From the NCBI RefSeq assembly GCF_006345805.1, contig NC_042998.1, forward strand, positions 6,696,001 through 6,760,000: a stretch of 64,000 nt of DNA. The letters run 5' to 3'. The stretch comes from Octopus sinensis. Lineage: Eukaryota. The notes beneath the pieces were generated by a model. It ran no database searches and had not been told where the DNA came from. It was given only the letters and a program-made list of their open reading frames with translations. The translations under genes were made by a program, and so were the position numbers. Of this stretch, positions 4,781 through 49,408 are shown one piece after another (position 1 is the stretch's first letter; each line of letters opens with the position of its first letter).

Positions 4781-4843
4781 ATATAATTTGTGAATTGAAG
4801 AAATGGAGTTGAACGAAGATTGAACAGAAATCGTTTTATTGCA

Positions 4844-4923
4844 TTCTACACGTGTTTCGAAAGGCACAATTTACCAAATTCCGATTGAATAATGAGACCA
4901 TATTGTGTCTTTCTCTTCAGGAA
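4844..4923 (-). ncRNA. Type I hammerhead ribozyme motif
   Basis: Minus strand: uuc-CUGAAGA-GAAAGACACAAU...AUUGUGCCUUUC-GAAA-CACGUG-UA-gaa; stem II 11/12 bp, palindromic stem III, GUA site, stem I only 3 bp. Confidence 0.7.
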
Positions 4924-5238
4924 GAAATAGGAAATCCGTTGGAAAAAGCAAAAACAGAACAGAGGCGGAGCAAAACAAATCGAACGAGGCTCCTAAGAGC
5001 CCATGGCCTTTCGAAACACGTGTAGAATGCAATAAAACGATTTCTGTTCAATCTTCGTTCAACTCCATTTCTTCAATTCACTAATAATATTAAAATTCAA
5101 TTATCCACACCAACGCACGGTTGCAACACCATATGGTTGTACCTCCAACCGTGCTGTCTTCTGCTGTGATTTTTGCTACCAAGGTACCGGTTAAACTTTT
5201 GATTAATCTGCAACAAGATTATTCATCTTTCTATTTCA

Positions 5239-5286
<48 letters not shown>

Positions 5287-5713
5287 CTAATGTAGGATAA
5301 AATTTTTTTTTTTTCGAGAAAAAAATTTTATCAATGGCCAGCATATCAAAAAATACCTTTAAAGGTTAAATTTATAAATAATTTACAAAATAAGGGCAAA
5401 AGAAAAATTCTAATGCCAAATATGCCGAAAAAAAGACAAAATTGTCAATAACCATTATTATTTATGCGTCTCGAAACAAACCGATAGAAATTTCTAAAAT
5501 AAAAAAAAATTTATCCTACATTAGTTATAAATTTAATAGTGTTCACTTCCAGATTCTCTCACTCTGTGAAAGTTTCTAGTTCGAATCACACATGTCTTGA
5601 GATGTACCAAAGATTTTCTATTTTGGATACATTTGGGGTACTTAGGTCTGCTCAGGACTTAGTGCTTGCTTTTTCCATGGGTATAAGTAAGTATTTCACT
5701 TATATTTCACGTA

Positions 5714-5776
5714 TTTATCGCTGAAGAGGGGAAAATTCTTATGAATTAACCCCGAAATTGGGACCTATACGGTAAA
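5714..5776 (+). ncRNA. Type I hammerhead ribozyme motif
   Basis: uuuaucg-CUGAAGA-gggg..cccc-GAAA-uugggaccua-UA-cgguaaa; 7-bp stem I with one G-U pair, stem III slightly mutated. Confidence 0.7.
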
Positions 5777-5802
5777 AACGGATGTAAATTATGTATGTGT
5801 GT

Positions 5803-11444: not shown

Positions 11445-11985
11445 ATATAAAATCAAAATCAAACCAAATCAAATCAGATATCAGAAAGCAGAACCAAAAT
11501 CGAAGCTGATCAACATCAATGGAAATTGCAGCTGTGATACCAGTGCCGGTGACAAGTAAGTGAACCATCCAATCGTAGCTGTTGCCAGCGCCGCCTCGAC
11601 TGGCCTCTGTTCCGGTGGCAGGTAAAAAGCACCATCCGTTCGTGGCCGTTGCCAGCCTGGCCTGGGCCCCGTGCCTGTGGCACGTAAAAAGCACCATCCG
11701 ATCGTGGCCGTTGCCAGCCTCGCGTGGCCCCCATGCCAGTAGCACGTAAAAAGTACCATCCGTCCATGGCCGTCTGCCAGCTCCGTCTGGCACCTGTGCG
11801 GGTGGCACGTAAAAAGCACCCACTACACTTGCAGAGTTGTTGGCGTTAGGAAGGGCATCCAGCTGTAGAAACACTGCCAGATCAGACTGGAGCCTGGTGC
11901 AGCCTCCTGGCTTCCCAGACCCCGGTCGAACCGTCCAACCCGTGCTAGCATGGAAAACGGACGTTAAACGATGATGATGATGATA
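11445..11985 (+). mobile_element. Family E RTE-type 3' end with ~5 tandem 60-bp units
   Basis: Repeated ggcacgtaaaaagcaccatccg..gttgccagc units, (gat)n tail. Confidence 0.8.
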
Positions 11986-13695: not shown

Positions 13696-13946
13696 GTATA
13701 TATACATATATATTTATATATATATATTTCATCATCATCGTCATCGTTTAACGTCCGTTTTCCATGCTAGCATGGGTTGGATGATTTGACTGAGGACTAG
13801 CAAACCAGATGGCTGCACCAGGCTTCACTCTTGATCTGGCAGAGTTTCTACAGCTGCATGCCCTTCCTAATGCCAACCACTCCGAGAGTGTAGTGGGTGC
13901 TTTTATATATAATATATATATATATATATATAATATATATATATAT

Positions 13947-14614
13947 ACAAAATTTAGAGGATTGACCACTAAAAGTGGACAGCGTGTATGCTAGATATAG
14001 ACGTTAAAATCGCCATTTTCCACTGAGAATGTGTTCTCAAGAAAAAATTCAGCAAAAAGCCAAAGCGTAAAAATAAGCAAGACAAATGAAAATATACGAA
14101 ATAAAACGATTACCTATGTACTAATTAGTTTCACTTGTTAATAATTTATGTATATGAATACATAAACATCTGCAAGATCATCAGCATAGTCTGTCATTTA
14201 TGAAGCACAATTTCTAGAACTAGATACAGGGCACTCGACCGAAATCCAGCACTGCATAAACTTCCACAAATTATATTTATGTGTATCTTTCAAATGCCTT
14301 CACTTTGGTGCGCTGAGATCGGAAATTACTCTGCAGTTAATAAACTACAGCAGTCAATTTCCCGGCTAGAGAACATTTTTTATTTAAAATTAAATAAGGG
14401 TAGAAATTGATATTAATCAATTAAAACCAGTGGCCTAGCATATTTAAAAAATCCGAAGATTAAAAATTTTTTTACATACTAAATTTAGAGGATTGACCAC
14501 TAAAATTTTTCTTGAGAACACATTCTCTGTGGAAAATGGTGATTGTGATTTTGACTTCTACTTTTAGTGGTCAATCCTCTAAATTTTGTATGTAAAAAAA
14601 TTTTTAATCTTCGG
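13947..14614 (-). mobile_element. Non-autonomous PLE/retrozyme-like element: 531-bp monomer plus inverted 5' segment
   Basis: aatttagaggattgaccactaaaa repeated at 13951 and 14482 (offset 531); inverted copies at 14504-14614; (TA)n on the left. Confidence 0.75.
14114..14189 (-). ncRNA. Type I hammerhead ribozyme
   Basis: cuaug-CUGAUGA-u-cuug..[uuuauguau/auacauaaa]..caag-u-GAAA-CUAAUUAG-UA-cauag; perfect 5-bp stem I, palindromic stem III, GUA site. Confidence 0.8.
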
Positions 14615-15967
14615 AGAGAAATAATGCTAAAAAAATACTTTGCGAAGACAATGTCTCAGCAATCATTGTTAAAGTTCACTGAGTTGAAATTTCTATGATA
14701 TTCGGCCATGAAGTACAAAATATCATTCACCAAAATGTCATTCGAGATGTTCATGATGGTGACACAGTCAAAGATTCTAACAATTATCTTTGCTCTCTCC
14801 TCTTTCACTTATTTTTGTCAGTGAGCAGAAGCCATCGTGGGGCATCCCCTTAAAGGGTTTAGTTGAACAAATCACCCCCCACACCCTGCCAGTACTGTTT
14901 TTGATGCCTGGTACTTATTTTGTTGGTTTCTTTTTGCTAAACCACTAAGTCACAGGGACACAAACAAATCAACGTCACTTCTCAAGAGGTGGTAGGGGAC
15001 AAACACAAAGACACACACACATTTTCACAAAGGGTTTCTCTCAGTTTCCATGTACCAAATCCACTCACAAGGCTTTGGTTGGACCTAGTTTATAATAGAG
15101 GACATTTGCCTAATGTGCCATGCTGTGAGACTGAACCTAGAACCATGTGGTTGGGAAATAAACTTCTTACCACATGACCACGCCTGCACCTGATCTTGAT
15201 TTAATTCAAATGAAGATGTGAATGGCAGAGAGAGAAAAAATGCTGAAATTCCAGTTCCTAAAGGAGACATATGGAAACCCTGACAGTGCCGTGTGCTGGA
15301 GAAGGGAAAGACTGAGAGGGGAGGAATCTATCAAAAGGGGTTACATCATATGTGACTGATTAGGATGAATCATAATGAGTTGATGCAATGATAGATATTT
15401 TAACACATAATTATTTTAGATTTCGTCCACCTTTTAATTGGTGACTTTTTTTACAGTGGTGTAGCCATCAGGGCTTCCAAGGGTAGCCCTTGAGTTGTAT
15501 ATTGACCCAACCCAATTAGGCCAATATGCAGCAGACCCAAAAGTGTTTTCCCCAAATAAAGTGTTGCTCAGGGTGTTCTGCTCCACCTTGCTCCCTCTAG
15601 TTACTCTACACATTTTCCATAGTAAAATGAGATAACTTTTTCTCTAAGTTCAACAACGTAGTATTTAATAATAGATTAAGTTTACTTCCAAAAAGAAAAA
15701 AAATTAACATTTTTTCCGATTTACACAACAGCCAAAAAATCCTTTGACATTTAAACCAGTCATATCCAGCCCAAATATTCTACATGTTCATGTGTAGGTA
15801 TGAACTTGTGCGCTTACACGAAGACTATGAACTTTTTACTCCCTTACTTTTACTCCCCCCCTCACTTAGTGGTCATTCAAATAGCTCTTTTGTCTTAATA
15901 ACGGTCAATCACACAGTAATTTCCCTTTGTTTAACGGTCATTTTTCATAGCATTTTTCCGATGGCCG

Positions 15968-24545: not shown

Positions 24546-24637
24546 CGCCTGCAGAGGGACTTGAACCCGCGACCCTTAGATTACTTCTAAGGTTGACCTA
24601 TAAAAGTCTGATGCTCTACCGACTGAGCCATGCAGGT
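24546..24637 (-). tRNA. tRNA-Lys-TTT: Intron-containing tRNA-Lys(UUU), possibly a pseudogene copy
   Basis: ACCTGCA-TG-GCTCAGTCGGTAGAGC-A-TCAGA-CTTTTA-[19-nt intron 24600-24582]-A-TCTAA-GGGTC-GCGGG-TTCAAGT-CCCTC-TGCAGGC-G; T6 terminator at 24537-24532; three stem mismatches. Confidence 0.8.
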
Positions 24638-25232: not shown

Positions 25233-25290
<58 letters not shown>

Positions 25291-25295
<5 letters not shown>

Positions 25296-26056
25296 TTAAT
25301 AAGGGTGAGAGAATTAGATACTAATTTAATAGCATATCTATTCAACACCAAGTGGCCTAGTGCTCCGAGAACCTGGATTATTATAATATTTTATAATATA
25401 TTATATATTTTTACAAAATAAATATAAGAGAGTGGTCACTATATGGCTCACTCTAGCACTAGTTAATCCAAAAGGTTTCAGCCACAAAAATACATGTTTC
25501 CCATGAAAGTCAGTACGATTGTTAGCTCACACGGACAGGGCAAATAAAAAATAACAAAAATACAGATTATTTTGGGACAATTGTTTCGCTATTAATGAAT
25601 TAAATGTAATTTTACTTACAAAAAAATCCACTTGTAGCTCGTCAGCCAAAACTATCTGGATGAAATCCACTCAATCACACGCCAGATTTTACCATAACGA
25701 TAAATACACGTGTGGTTCAATTGATTACATCCGACGTTATAATTCAAATGCCCCAACTAACAGCGCGCCAAACTCTCACGGAAAACAAATACTGCATTTA
25801 GAAATAAATGTAGCATAATTATAATTAATTAATAAGGGTGAGAGAATTAGATACTAATTTAATAGCATATCTATTCAACACCAAGTGGCCTAGTGCTCCG
25901 AGAAACCTGGATTATTATAATATTTTATAATATATTATAATATTTTTACAAAATAAATATAAGAGAGTGGTCACTATATGGCTCACTGTGGCTGAAACCT
26001 TTTGGATTAACTAGTGCTAGAGTGAGCCATATAGTGACCACTCTCTTATATTTATT
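25291..26056 (-). mobile_element. Non-autonomous PLE/retrozyme-like element: 533-bp monomer, ~160-bp direct repeat plus inverted segment, in a SINE A (TA)n
   Basis: 25291-25451 repeated at 25824-25986; 25987-26056 is the reverse complement of ~25417-25486; (TA)n on both sides. Confidence 0.85.
25570..25651 (-). ncRNA. Type I hammerhead ribozyme with canonical core
   Basis: uuuugg-CUGACGA-gcua...uagc-GAAA-CAAUUG-UC-ccaaaa; perfect 6-bp stem I, G-C closing stem II, palindromic stem III, GUC site. Confidence 0.88.
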
Positions 26057-30530: not shown

Positions 30531-32151
30531 CAGGGTGTCCCAAAAGTCACTGATGGGTTTCAATTTTTAATTATTTCTTTAACTTTACAAATAAATGCAT
30601 GAAATTTTGATACAATAAAAGAATATAATGGAAATTAATATGCACAAGTCAAATTTTGCAACACCCCTACATCACCTATGAAAAATTGCATTGCTTAAAT
30701 GGCAGCCATTTTCAGCTTCACACACCTGTGCTCTTTCCAAGACTTGCACCATAACACCCTCAAGAGTTTCAGACCCCACTTCTTTGATTTCTCTATTGAT
30801 GTTCTCATTCACTTCCACCAGAGAGAGTTTACGTCAACAAATGGGAGACCCTGGTGGAAGTGAATGAGAACATCAATAGAGAAATCAAAGAAGTGGGGTC
30901 TGAAACTCTTGAGGGTGTTATGGTGCAAGTTTTGGAAAGAGCACAGGTGTGCAAAGCTGAAAATGGCTGCCATTTAAGCAATGCCATTTTTCATAGGTGG
31001 TTAGTTAGTTAGTTAGTTAATTCTTTGGCTCAAAAACCAAGGCCATGTAGGGGGACATGGAGTTATGTACAGGGTGGTGTTCAGGTAAAGAGTTCAGGTC
31101 ACTTGTGGTCAAGCGAGACTTTGAACCGAGCGGTTGTCGGCATCTTCACCATCTCGTCCGGCAGCTTATTCCACGGATCCGCAACCCGGACAGAGAAAGC
31201 CCCTCTCCTTCGATTGAGATGAAATCGTCGCAGATAGAGCTTTTTGGAATGACCCCTGCAGCCGACGCTCTGGAGCAGGAGTGAAGAACAGCTCTTTTGA
31301 GAGGTTACAGTTTCTGCTTATGATGTTGTGAGCAAGAATGAGATCACTACGGCGTCGTCGTTTTTCTAGAGAATAAAGGTCGAGCGTCTTCAGCCTTTTT
31401 TCATAAGACAAATTCTTGAGACCCAGAACCATGCGGGTAGCCAGCTTCTGGACTCTTTCGAGATGCTGTATGTCTTTGAGGAGATAAGGAGAAGAGGCTT
31501 GAATCCCGTAATCCAATATGGGTCTCACCAGCGTGACATAGAGTGGTAGGCTGCTGTGAGCATTCCGAATGACCATTGAATCAAGAACAGAACTCCACGT
31601 GCTTTGTTGGCAGCATGGACGCACTGGGCCGAAGGCGAAAAGGAGGAATCCACCAAGATACCCAGTCCTTTACCTGATCGGTCCTCTCCAGCAGCAGATG
31701 ACCCGGCTCGAAATCAAGTTGAGTTGCAGGAGGAGAGGCAACAGGCAGATGACAGCACTTTGACACGTTCAGACACAGGTCCCATCCGTTAGACCATCTC
31801 CAAATTTGGTGGAGGCATCGACGAAGATCCTCTATATCACTGCGAGGAGCGACCAGTTTGACATCGTCGGCAAATAGAAGGGTGTGTTGCGTGAGGTCAT
31901 TGGGCAAGTCATTTATGAAGACTAAGAACAATAAGGGCCCAAGCATTGAACCTTGAGGCACGCCACTGCTCGCACTGGAGACGTCGGACCGCGAACCATT
32001 AATTTGGACTTGGTGGTGTTGGGGTGTTGCAAAATTTGACTTGTACCTATTAATTTCCATTATATTCTTTTATTGTATCAAAATTTCATGCATTTATTTG
32101 TAAAGTTAAGGACATTATTAAAACCCCATCAGTGACTTCTGGGACACGCTG
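30531..32151. mobile_element. Tc1/mariner fold-back MITE interrupted by CR1
   Basis: cagggtgtcccaaaagtcactgatggg ... cccatcagtgacttctgggacacgctg; arms 30531-30830 vs 30853-31000 plus 32011-32151. Confidence 0.85.
31001..32010 (-). mobile_element. 5'-truncated CR1-type LINE (frameshifted RT)
   Basis: SGVPQGSMLGPLLFLVFINDL..LLFADD..LVRPILDYG..LERVQKLATRM; (taac)n tail. Confidence 0.9.
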
Positions 32152-33764: not shown

Positions 33765-35102
33765 ACAAGGTTAGATCAATAAGTATCCGGATTGTTGCCA
33801 TAGTAACAAAGCTAAAGTACACAGAGTGAAGCCACTTGGCAAAGATTGACCTTGAATTCTGCTGGGCATGTTCACTAAGTTTTAACATTCTAGCACACTT
33901 CTACTGTTTACAGAAGTGTTTGGAAGGAAGGTGTGTAGCATGTGATCTTCACATTGACTATTACAGAGTAAGTTGTCATGGCAGTACCTGCTCAGAGGCC
34001 TACGTGAAGTTGCAGAAAGTGTGTGGAGAAGAGTGTATGAGCCGCACACAAGTGTACGAGTGGTTCATACATTTCTAAGATTGCCAAAAAAAAAAAAAAT
34101 GTAGATATTGACAAACGCTCTGGGAGACCCACAACCAGCAGAACTGAAGACAAACATTGCAGATGTGCGTGCATCTGTGAGGGAAAATTGTCAAATCACC
34201 ATCCATGAGTTATCAGATGATGTGCAGAAAGGCGGTGACCTGGCAGAAACGTTAGCACGCTGGGCGAAATGCGTAGCCATATTTCGTCGGCTGTTACGTT
34301 CTGAGTTCAATTTCCGCCGAGGTCAACTTTGCCTTACATCCTTTCGGGGTCGATAAATTAAGAACCAGTTACGCACTGAGGTCGATATAATCGACTTAAT
34401 CTGTTTGTCTGTCCTTGTTTGTTCCCTCTGTGTTTAGCCCCTTGCGGGTAGTAAAGAAATAGGTATTTCCTCTGTCTTTACGTTCTGAGTTCAAATTCCG
34501 CCGAGTTCGACTTTGCCTTACATCCTTTCGGGGTCGATAAATTAAATACCAGTCACACACTGGGGTCGATGTAATCGACTTAATCCATTTGTCTGTCTTT
34601 GTTTGTCCCCTCTGTGTTTAGCTCCTTGTGAGTAGTAAAGAAATATATCAGAGGATGTGCAGATTAGTTACGGTTCAGTTCAGTCCGTTATCACTGAAGA
34701 TTTGGGTGTCAGATGCATGTCTGCCAAGTTTGTGCCAAAACTACTTTCAGCTGACCAAAAAGACACTCAGGTTTCAGTTGTACAAGATCTTGATTGTGTT
34801 GAGAATGATGAAAACCTTTTGTAAGCTTTGCATAGGCTTCTGAGCAGGTATCGCCAAGCTTTTGGTAAAATCCGATGCAATTTCTCTGCCTAACTTTCTC
34901 TGTCATGGTCAATGCATTTATCACATGCTACACACCTTCCTTCCAAGCACTGCTGTAAACAGTGGAAATGAGTTAGAACATTAAAACTTGATGCACATGC
35001 ACAACAGAATTCAAGGTCAATCCGTACCAAGCAGCTTCACTCTGCATGCTTTAGCTTCATCACTATGACAACAGTCCAGATATTTATGGATCAGATCATG
35101 TA
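33765..35102. mobile_element. mariner element with two inverted 5' ends, interrupted by SINE B (34229-34645)
   Basis: Long imperfect TIRs; transposase relic MSRTQVYEWF..SGRP..ISYGSVQ..KFVPKLL; SINE flanked by atcaga(t/g)gatgtgcaga TSD. Confidence 0.8.
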
Positions 35103-40035: not shown

Positions 40036-40146
40036 TCACATGATAGAGGGATAGAAACATGTTTTGCAACAGGGGAGATATCTGGCTTCTCCAGACGGAA
40101 AAAGAGAGAGGAGAAAGAAAAAACTGTAAATACATATCAGGGTATA

Positions 40147-41370
40147 CCCTGGTTGAACCTTTGCTCCAAAAGAACCAAAATGGATTCAGACATGGGCGCT
40201 CAACACTGAGCCAGATACTATGCCTACGCAGACTTATTGAAGAATCAAAAGCATTTAATCGCGATCTTGCAATGGTATTTGTAGACTTTTCTAAAGCGTT
40301 CGATTCTGTAGATAGGTACAAGATGTTTGAAATCCTTAAGCTCTATAGGATACCAGACAAAATCATTTCTGCCATCAAGGTCCTCTACACAGATACGTCT
40401 TCAACCATCTTAACCCCTGACGGAGAAACATCATCTTTCTCAATCAAAGCCGGAATACTGCAGGGAGACACACTCGCCCCATATCTTTTCATCATTGTCG
40501 TTGACTATGTGCTACGTATGTCAGTTGATACCATCTCTGGCAAGGGCTTTGAAATAAAACCAAGAAGAAGTTCCAGACACCCAGCTGAATACTTGACAGA
40601 CACTGACTTTGCTGACGACATTGCTCTTATCAGTGATTCTCTCTCCAATGCCCAGTCTCTTTTACAATCTCTCAAACAAGCCTCAAATTGTGAAGGTCTT
40701 TACCTCAATGAGGCCAAGACTGAATATATAAACAAGTGCCTGTCCAACAGTGATTGCATCATCCACACTCTCAACAGTGCGCCTTTAAATATGGTTTCTG
40801 ATTATAAATATCTTGGGTCATACATATCATCATCTGGAAAAGACTTTCTAACTAGAAAGGGTATGGCCTGGTCAGCCTGTAATGACATGCATAAGATCTG
40901 GTCATCAAATCTAAGTAGAGACTTCAAACTTGAAATATTCAAAGCCACAGTCGAACCAATTCTACTATATGGCTTAGAAACCTGGACGTTATCAAAGAAG
41001 CTTGAGAGGCAGTTGGATGGAACCTACACTCGCCTCCTTATGAGAGCTCAAAATCTCTCGTGGAGGCGCCATCCAACCAAAATGCAAATATATGGAAAAT
41101 TACCACCTGTATCATCTCTTGTGAAAGGTAGGAGAGTCCAGTTTGCTGGACATTGTTGTAGAGCTGAAAAAGAAGTAATTTCTACTCTTCTCCTCTGGAA
41201 GCCATCTACGCGCAATACCAGAAGGCGCACACTCTCCTACCCTGATGTAATCTCCAGGGATACAGGCATCCAGCAACAGGACCTCCGTAATGCCATGATG
41301 GACCGTGAAGTCTGGCGTAGCATGGTAAATTCCATTGTCTCGACCACGGTTGAACAATGATGATGATGAT
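40147..41370 (+). mobile_element. 5'-truncated RTE-clade LINE with uninterrupted RT ORF (ORF 40059-41360)
   Basis: NQNGFRHGRST..FVDFSKAFDSV..GILQGDTLAPYLF..DFADDIAL..YKYLGS..PILLYG-ETWTL..FAGH; (gat)n tail; the first ~29 aa of the ORF come from flanking DNA. Confidence 0.93.
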
Positions 41371-46947: not shown

Positions 46948-47387
46948 ACATTGCCGGTGGCACGTAAGAGAACCATCCAAACGTGGTCGTTGCCAGCACC
47001 GCCCCACTGGCCTCGTGCTGGTGGCATGTAAAAAGCACCATCCGTTCGTGGTCGTTGCCAGCCTCGCCTGGCCCCCGTGCCGGTGGCATGTAAAAAGCAC
47101 CATCTGTTCGTGGTCGTTGGCAGCCTCGCCTGGCCCTCGTGCCGGTGGCATGTAAAAAGCACCATCCGATCGTGGCCGTTTGCCAGCCTCGTCTGGCACC
47201 TGTGCCGGTGGCATGTAAAAAGCACCCACTACACTCATGGAGTGGTTGGCGTTAGGAGGGGCATCCAGCCGTAGAAACATTGCCAGATCAGACTGGGCCT
47301 GGTGCAGCCTTCTGGCTTCCCAGACCCCAGTTGAACCGTCCAACCCATGCTAGCATGGAAAGCGGACGCTAAACGATGATGATGATG
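46948..47387 (+). mobile_element. Family E RTE-type 3' end
   Basis: ~5 tandem 60-bp units, (gat)n tail. Confidence 0.8.
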
Positions 47388-48824: not shown

Positions 48825-49408
48825 CCAGTTTTGCATAACCAGCCCCAGCCCATTCAAAAGTACCTTGGATCATAGGGCGACCTGCTGTGCTTGAGGAGAC
48901 CTATTGAGTCAAGTACATGAACATCAAAATGAAAATCAAATGGAAATTGTAGTTGTGATACCCATGCCAGTGACATTTAAAAAGCACCATCTGAATGTGG
49001 CCAATGCCAGTGCTGCCTTGACTGGCTTCCGTGCTGATGGCACATAAAGAGCACCAACCAATCATGGCCTTTTCCAGCCTCCTCTGGCCCCTGTGCCGGT
49101 GGCACGTAAAAAGCACCAACCAATCATGGCCTTTGCCAGCCTCCTCTGGCCCCTGTGCTGGTAGCACATAAAAAGCACCAACCAATAATGGCCTTTGCCA
49201 GCCTCCTCTGGCCTCTGTGCTGGTGGCACGTAAAAACTACTCCCAACAATCACGGAGTGGTTGGTGTTAGGAAGGGCATCCAGTGGTAGAAACACTGCCA
49301 GATCAGACTGGAGCCTGGTGCAAGCCTCCTGGCTTCCCAGACCCCAGTTAAACCGTCCAACCCATGCTAGCATAGAAAACAGATGTTAAACGATGATGAT
49401 GATGATGT
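48825..49408 (+). mobile_element. Family E RTE-type 3' end
   Basis: gctgtgcttgaggagacc (AVLEET), tandem units, (gat)n tail. Confidence 0.75.

Follow-up and report, generated by a model that had tools for sequence, protein, structure and literature searches.

The insertion at positions 13946–14615 of the 64,000-nt stretch of Octopus sinensis DNA analysed here (the window) is very probably a non-autonomous derivative of a Penelope-like retroelement (PLE), of the non-LTR retrozyme type, whose cDNA would be primed internally on the RNA. Its PLE-type features are a partial-tandem pseudo-LTR, a (TA)n tract and an adjacent inverted 5'-truncated copy, the last found in all four hammerhead elements of the window. 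Its retrozyme features are a type I hammerhead detected by scan, the lack of an ORF, a low GC content and a unit of a few hundred nucleotides.

Organization of the insertion

The insertion, referred to as the 14-kb element, consists of a main copy followed by a back-to-back inverted copy, with (TA)n abutting; its boundaries agree with those first proposed. The main copy (minus strand, 13946–14505) is 560 nt long and comprises 1.05 units of a non-coding 531-nt unit, and in unit coordinates that start at the hammerhead cut it begins at 145 and ends at 173. The unit has 32% GC, and its longest ATG-initiated ORF is 19 aa in the sense and 43 aa in the antisense direction. A 28-nt terminal direct repeat on the minus strand forms the pseudo-LTR, with the 5' copy at 14478–14505 and the 3' copy at 13947–13974; the copies are identical at 29 of 30 positions, and the offset of 531 is the one originally reported.

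The inverted 5'-truncated copy (plus strand, 14506–14615) covers unit positions 73–198. It overlaps the start of the main copy by 54 nt, 53 of them identical, and reaches 25 nt past the main 3' end in a tail-like manner, or 39 nt if a weak match up to 14629 is counted. A 22-nt deletion takes out the 5' strand of helix P1 (see below), and this copy also carries a 6-nt insertion and four substitutions. The weak match, at 14616–14629, is to the continuation of the unit and includes part of the P1 3' strand; judged by these letters, the inverted copy may derive from a variant template and extend to 14629.

At the 3' junction, a dispersed SINE-like repeat (plus strand, 13729–13903) is broken and followed by a (TA)n tract with a 21-nt internal repeat (13904–13945), which is not present in other copies of the flanking repeat, which continue differently. 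The right junction has no (TA)n; in the right flank, from 14616 onward, neither the remainder of the SINE-like repeat nor a target-site duplication was seen. The left-junction (TA)n and the missing remainder reflect either a deletion of the target or TA repeats added during insertion. We note that another copy of the flanking SINE likewise breaks off at a (TA)n tract (28340), and that SINE-like repeats of the flanking type contain a 62-nt internal tandem in three to four copies (11593–11820, 46952–47226 and 49031–49236). The window is AT-rich DNA dense in microsatellites and dispersed SINE-like repeats, which we take to resemble octopus repeats.

Relatives of the 14-kb element

All four hammerhead elements of the window are alike in build: each lies at (TA)n tracts and consists of two pieces that are set back to back and overlap in part. 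The homologous 25-kb element (minus strand, 25288–26056) has a main copy of 700 nt, or 1.31 units, with a hammerhead at 25645–25576, an inverted piece at 25987–26056, (TA)n on both sides and a 165-nt direct repeat. This repeat had been assigned an offset of 533; the repeat itself is confirmed, with an offset of 533–535 owing to two 1-nt indels in the 167 columns that align its two copies. The inverted piece shows 0/70 differences from the repeated part. A third relative, the 5.3-kb element (5286–5790), has a left piece on the minus strand (approximately 5482–5286), which contains the nested domain described below, and a right piece on the plus strand with a hammerhead at 5721–5769. Adjoining it, inside the microsatellite of one SINE copy and between two (TA)n tracts, is a fourth hammerhead-type element (4786–5242), with a core at 4920–4847 (minus strand), a palindromic stem III and a back-to-back piece (5006–5242) that overlaps by 85 nt; it has no evident relation to the 530-nt families. 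BLAST of the 14-kb and 25-kb elements against the window found no further copies, leaving one copy per family, and a two-unit nhmmer profile gave six matches in the window, all within these two elements, missing the 5.3-kb element. Two exact-match scans (25–26 nt) for stray host DNA in GTDB genomes returned 0 and 0 matches.

The 14-kb and 25-kb units, originally described as dissimilar in sequence, are distant homologues as judged by alignment. When both are opened at the cut, the two units (531 and 533 nt) share 54% identity over 585 columns of a global alignment (z = 6.0 against 300 shuffles), and with the hammerhead removed none of 500 block shuffles reaches the alignment score at any of three block sizes. 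Three exact words of 9–10 nt are collinear, on diagonals +4, +21 and +5. Two of four segments taken alone are not significant (37/500 shuffles after the hammerhead, 130/500 before it), and BLAST between the two elements gave no match. Sequence similarity of the 5.3-kb element to the two families is not significant (71/300 and 37/300 shuffles).

The hammerhead ribozyme

The predicted type I hammerhead of the 14-kb element (minus strand, 14113–14189; core 14184–14119) has its predicted cut between 14119 and 14118, a 5-bp stem I, a long stem II and a 10-nt stem III. Scanning both strands for the core with stems gave three matches, 14184–14119 (minus), 25645–25576 (minus) and 5721–5769 (plus); the fourth hammerhead, 4920–4847 (minus), was found by eye and has a weak stem I. 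Rfam at the gathering threshold returned one match in the whole window, a tRNA, with none of the four hammerheads scoring, and at E ≤ 10 on 13900–14700 it gave 11 hairpin-type matches, far below gathering and with no ribozyme among them; the hammerhead call therefore rests on the core-and-stem scan. The tRNA-like gene (minus strand, 24546–24637), the only Rfam match at the gathering threshold, has a Lys(UUU)-type anticodon loop and approximately 20 extra nucleotides that resemble an intron.

Stem II of the 14-kb hammerhead opens with a U–U mismatch; a G–C pair is usual at the base of this stem. Because of this mismatch and a fold z-score of only −1.78, versus −5.17 for the 25-kb hammerhead, the 14-kb copy of the ribozyme may be weak or dead. 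Its stem III is self-complementary (the dimer type), as are those of the 25-kb and 4.8-kb hammerheads, three of the four, whereas 5721–5769 lacks this feature. Hammerheads with such a stem III are described as cleaving in dimers (PMC6765202, excerpt).

After the hammerhead, a U-rich stretch of approximately 78 nt (minus strand, 14113–14036) has donor-like and acceptor-like signals at its edges. It resembles the 75-bp pseudo-LTR intron of Penelope; the signals are not kept in the 25-kb unit. An intron at this place was dropped on inspection, as it fits one family only.

A nested two-helix domain

The original prediction placed a pseudoknot about 110–120 nt after the hammerhead in both families. 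Its helices had to be inferred from the description, which P1 and a crossing helix fit best. The inner helix P1 is formed by a 5' strand at 13987–13995 and a 3' strand at 14434–14442, and an outer helix by 14020–14026 (5' strand) and 14427–14433 (3' strand), all on the minus strand. The crossing helix has its 5' strand at 14495–14503 (minus strand), repeated at 13972–13964, and pairs with 14435–14427. The outer and crossing helices exclude each other because they use a common 3' strand.

P1 is well supported. It has 8–10 bp in three elements, its four outer pairs are all compensatorily changed between the 14-kb and 25-kb elements, and shuffling the 5' region 20000 times yields an equally good partner in 111, 49 and 39 cases for the three elements. 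The outer helix has 7, 6 and 9 bp, with a G–C pair replaced by A–T in the third. Together they form a nested domain common to the three elements, approximately 95–225 nt downstream of the cut. The nested fold dominates the predictions for the 25-kb and 5.3-kb elements (probabilities of 0.78–0.99; 0.95–0.99 and 0.78–0.99 in the 5.3-kb element), whereas in the 14-kb unit it has −28.1 kcal/mol against an optimum of −29.6 kcal/mol, with pairing probabilities of 0.09 and 0.06. A descriptor of the domain, written after the 5.3-kb element had been seen, matches twice in the window (25-kb and 5.3-kb elements) and in the closed 14-kb unit, against a background of 0.075 per shuffled window (40 shuffles) and 0/3000 shuffles of the 5.3-kb element. 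The helices were compared by landmarks across the three elements because MAFFT left the three hammerheads out of register and misaligned the 25-kb domain, and RNAalifold on these alignments was uninformative.

The crossing helix fares differently: its 9 bp in the 14-kb element become 4 bp at the homologous register of the 25-kb element, and the 5.3-kb relative shows none at this register. The predicted pseudoknot is thus not conserved. Of the order first proposed (hammerhead, spacer, pseudoknot), the spacing stands, with the P1 5' strand 125 and 114 nt after the cut, whereas a pseudoknot common to the families does not. It is improbable that a conserved pseudoknot, telomerase-like or belonging to an uncharacterised ribozyme, is functional here, or that the 14-kb family alternates between a pseudoknot and the nested fold. 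The 9-bp crossing helix of that family would suit such a role (−11.1 kcal/mol, predicted probability 0.5), the comparison with the nested fold being indirect because ViennaRNA cannot score pseudoknots; against it are the reduction of this helix to 4 bp in the 25-kb element, its absence from the corresponding register of the 5.3-kb element, for which the nested fold dominates the predictions, and the lack of a pseudoknot ribozyme among the 11 Rfam matches up to E 10. Nor was the HDV-type helix order seen on inspection; an HDV-like reading, which fits one family only, was dropped by eye.

Positions of the copy ends

As proposed at the outset, both ends of the 14-kb main copy (unit positions 145 and 173) fall between the two P1 strands. 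That P1 could therefore form only in a tandem or circular RNA does not hold, since the P1 strands can pair round the whole linear 14-kb copy, with a pairing probability of 0.061 in the linear copy and 0.06 in the closed circle.

The main copies of the 14-kb and 25-kb elements begin at unit positions 145 and 124, which are 3 and 11 nt before one common landmark, so that the two starts lie within 8 nt of each other when aligned by it. The inverted copies of the three elements begin 23, 1 and approximately 27 nt before the outer helix. Six 3' ends are available from the three elements. Site A, marked by a landmark in the domain loop, has two of them no more than about 2 nt away, at 173 (14-kb main copy) and 159 (25-kb inverted copy), and the 14-kb inverted 3' end is 25 nt beyond this site. 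At site B, the 25-kb main end (288) and the left end of the 5.3-kb element are 19 and 17 nt from another common landmark. The remaining one, the 3' end of the 5.3-kb right piece, falls elsewhere, approximately 21 nt after its hammerhead cut. Sites A and B are about 115–130 nt apart, wider than the published 30–40-nt tail; the tail-like extension measures 25 nt in the 14-kb and 129 nt in the 25-kb element. The ends thus vary but cluster, which, for six ends in three elements, fits internal starts of reverse transcription. What had been called a different circular permutation more plausibly reflects two preferred sites of internal priming than a circle opened freely at any point.

Origin and template

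Insertions of PLEs have partial tandems, a 5' inverted copy, a 30–40-nt tail and a bias for (TA)n (Craig et al. 2021, PMC8557442). For Poseidon PAc of Anolis, an internal start at two stem-loop sites, nicking at AT-rich DNA and uncleaved RNA as the main substrate are reported (PMC11167929, excerpt), and retrozymes are related to PLE pseudo-LTRs (Li et al. 2026, bioRxiv 10.64898/2026.07.22.740005, excerpt). In the mechanism we favour for the 14-kb element, the RNA would be made as a more-than-unit, multimeric transcript, and a PLE reverse transcriptase (RT)/GIY-YIG endonuclease supplied in trans would bind the nested domain and nick AT-rich DNA. The cDNA would start internally, at site A in the domain loop or at site B, approximately 65 nt 3' of the domain, pass the uncut or re-ligated hammerhead site and stop slightly more than one unit later, and a second priming on the other DNA end would give the inverted piece. 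The apparent permutation would then be the choice of start site.

A search of the window for an autonomous partner found no GIY-YIG family match (Pfam) among 111 reading frames, 16 long and 95 shorter ones taken from 42 of at least 110 aa and 139 shorter, most SINE-repeat frames being left out; the unit itself has no RT/GIY-YIG ORF. Pfam matches in the window are two RVT_1 and one Mos1 HTH. The RVT_1 frames, 40047–41360 (plus, 437 aa) and 31584–32069 (minus, 162 aa), both look like fragments of non-LTR LINEs rather than of PLEs by their sequence. The Mos1-type transposase HTH fragment (plus, 33830–34075) is a mariner remnant. Recently active Penelope-like families are reported for Octopus vulgaris (PMC13282606, excerpt).

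The template must account for read-through of the ribozyme. The 14-kb main copy runs through the intact predicted cut site, with 387 nt before and 173 nt after it, and the 25-kb main copy has 412 nt before and 288 nt after the cut. A linear ribozyme-released monomer cannot template such copies, so the copying must have used an uncleaved multimer or a circle, or involved a template jump. The multimeric or circular template of the original prediction is thus upheld by the 387 + 173 nt across the cut site, although it does not follow from the pseudoknot; such a template has also already been proposed in print for the partial tandems of PLEs and for animal retrozymes (PMC7229834, PMC7761336, PMC8557442). 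A variant of the PLE derivation, differing in template form, has rolling-circle reverse transcription act on a covalently closed circle of one 531-nt monomer, a serious possibility though not the one we prefer. A circle would yield more-than-unit copies across an intact cut site, circular RNAs have been demonstrated for other animal retrozymes (coral, mussel and axolotl; PMC7229834), and the closed units are predicted to fold more stably than 30 mononucleotide-shuffled versions (−130.7 versus −100.2, sd 6.0; −146.3 versus −103.9, sd 4.5). The near-identity of the 25-kb repeated parts, with only two 1-nt indels in 167 columns and 0/70 differences in the inverted piece, agrees with a circle and fits a multimer as well. 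The 14-kb inverted piece, on the other hand, differs from the main copy by six events in 52 sites, versus one in 54 in the overlap (Fisher p 0.058) or a pooled 3/291 (p 0.0005). These differences lean towards two different template units, although a later deletion in the inverted repeat, or an assembly error, could also explain them. Purified PLE protein uses uncleaved RNA in vitro (PMC11167929, excerpt), and the clustering rather than scatter of the 3' ends also argues against a circle.

That the repeats arose at the DNA level, whether a dead PLE end was locally duplicated and inverted or there was satellite-like amplification, and without RNA-based mobility of the short unit, is very unlikely. 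Local amplification from a PLE terminus has been proposed (bioRxiv 10.64898/2026.07.22.740005, excerpt), and one copy per family in the window and the rearranged flanks would agree with it. Four separate elements in 64 kb with the same back-to-back overlapped layout at (TA)n, and ends that recur at homologous positions across different families, speak against it.

The similar lengths of the two units, 531 and 533 nt, had been taken to suggest a constraint on monomer size. As the units are distant homologues and not independent draws, sequence comparison suggests that the similar length is mainly inherited. Selection for a length near 530 nt independent of ancestry, whether for circle formation, ribozyme dimer geometry or RT loading, seems unlikely to us. 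Six homologous segments differ by −11, +15, +17, −16, −7 and +4 nt, which sum to +2, and the domain-to-hammerhead distance is 370, 373 and approximately 365 nt in the three elements. Sign flips of the segment differences, however, cancel as well in 4/64 cases (within 2 nt) or 8/64 (within 4 nt), with 0.06–0.12 in simulation. The 14-kb element's own inverted copy is a variant 16 nt shorter over the compared stretch, and published retrozyme units are widely scattered, from 51–972 bp in vertebrates (bioRxiv 10.64898/2026.07.22.740005, excerpt) to 220–245 in coral and 350–390 in mussel. The near-cancellation of segment lengths (p of approximately 0.06–0.12) is therefore a hint of a size constraint in these sequences and not a demonstration, given the homology of the units and the published range.

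Comparison with known systems

The element itself is of a known kind with a known layout; the permuted more-than-unit arrangement was already expected and adds little, and the covarying domain is a modest lead. PLEs are the closest retroelement relatives of telomerase, and how they choose their RNA, and whether animal retrozymes move via circles or uncleaved multimers, are open questions (PMC8557442; PMC7761336; PMC11167929, excerpt). The conserved domain around the start sites may be a new candidate for an RT recognition element, as suggested by the sequences of three copies. A more specific proposal, which we put forward tentatively and hold to be rather less likely than not to survive in full, is that the nested domain is a conserved cis-element recognized by Penelope-type RT. 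It would set where the cDNA starts (in or just 3' of the loop) and stops (main copies just 3' of P1, inverted copies at the 5' edge), and in this would functionally parallel the core of telomerase RNA that defines the template boundary; the 14-kb family could also change over to the pseudoknot. If true, short hammerhead families of retrozymes would for the first time be linked by a common motif to the enzyme that mobilises them, and maps of genomic ends could decide between circular and multimeric templates. Sequence differences within an insertion can likewise tell one circular template from several units. These elements belong to short, mutually divergent families of a single genome, and with their covarying RNA domain and repeatedly used end positions they offer a minimal natural substrate for tests of RT recognition. 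Full-text searches of the open literature listed no paper on these families or on a conserved helix domain at PLE or retrozyme start sites; Repbase or Dfam may annotate the families.

Like metazoan non-LTR retrozymes (Cervera and de la Pena 2020, PMC7229834; bioRxiv 10.64898/2026.07.22.740005, excerpt), the 14-kb element has an ORF-less, low-GC unit with one type I hammerhead, a weak palindromic stem III and more-than-unit genomic copies, and its size is within the 51–972 bp given in the latter source. Unlike metazoan retrozymes, which form arrays of at least two units, the elements here are dispersed insertions of 1.05–1.3 units with a single hammerhead and an inverted piece, and their units are longer than the 170–400 nt reported for invertebrate retrozymes. 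The 14-kb insertion, with 1.05 units and one hammerhead, does not contain at least two hammerhead-bearing units in tandem; by the measure of Li et al. 2026 for an active copy, at least two hammerhead units, it would be a monomer derivative (bioRxiv 10.64898/2026.07.22.740005, excerpt). The three families here have a common structured domain, whereas metazoan retrozymes are reported to lack a conserved motif pointing to their partner (PMC7761336).

The likeness to EN+ PLEs (Penelope/Poseidon, Neptune and Hydra; PMC8557442) extends to the pseudo-LTR partial tandem, the adjacent inverted 5'-truncated copy, the hammerhead, perhaps the tail-like extension at one end, the (TA)n target and the absence of a clear target-site duplication. 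Unlike EN+ PLEs, the elements here have no RT/GIY-YIG ORF, and their second start site is 115–130 nt away rather than 30–40. As in Poseidon PAc (Frangieh et al. 2024, PMC11167929, excerpt), two internal 3'-end sites follow the hammerhead and lie within or close to a stem-loop, the targets are AT-rich, and copies cross the cut site. PAc is autonomous, with start sites 111–118 nt into the ORF in an AC-rich stem-loop (PMC11167929, excerpt), whereas the putative start sites here belong to non-coding AU-rich RNA and follow the cut by 159–173 and approximately 288 nt.
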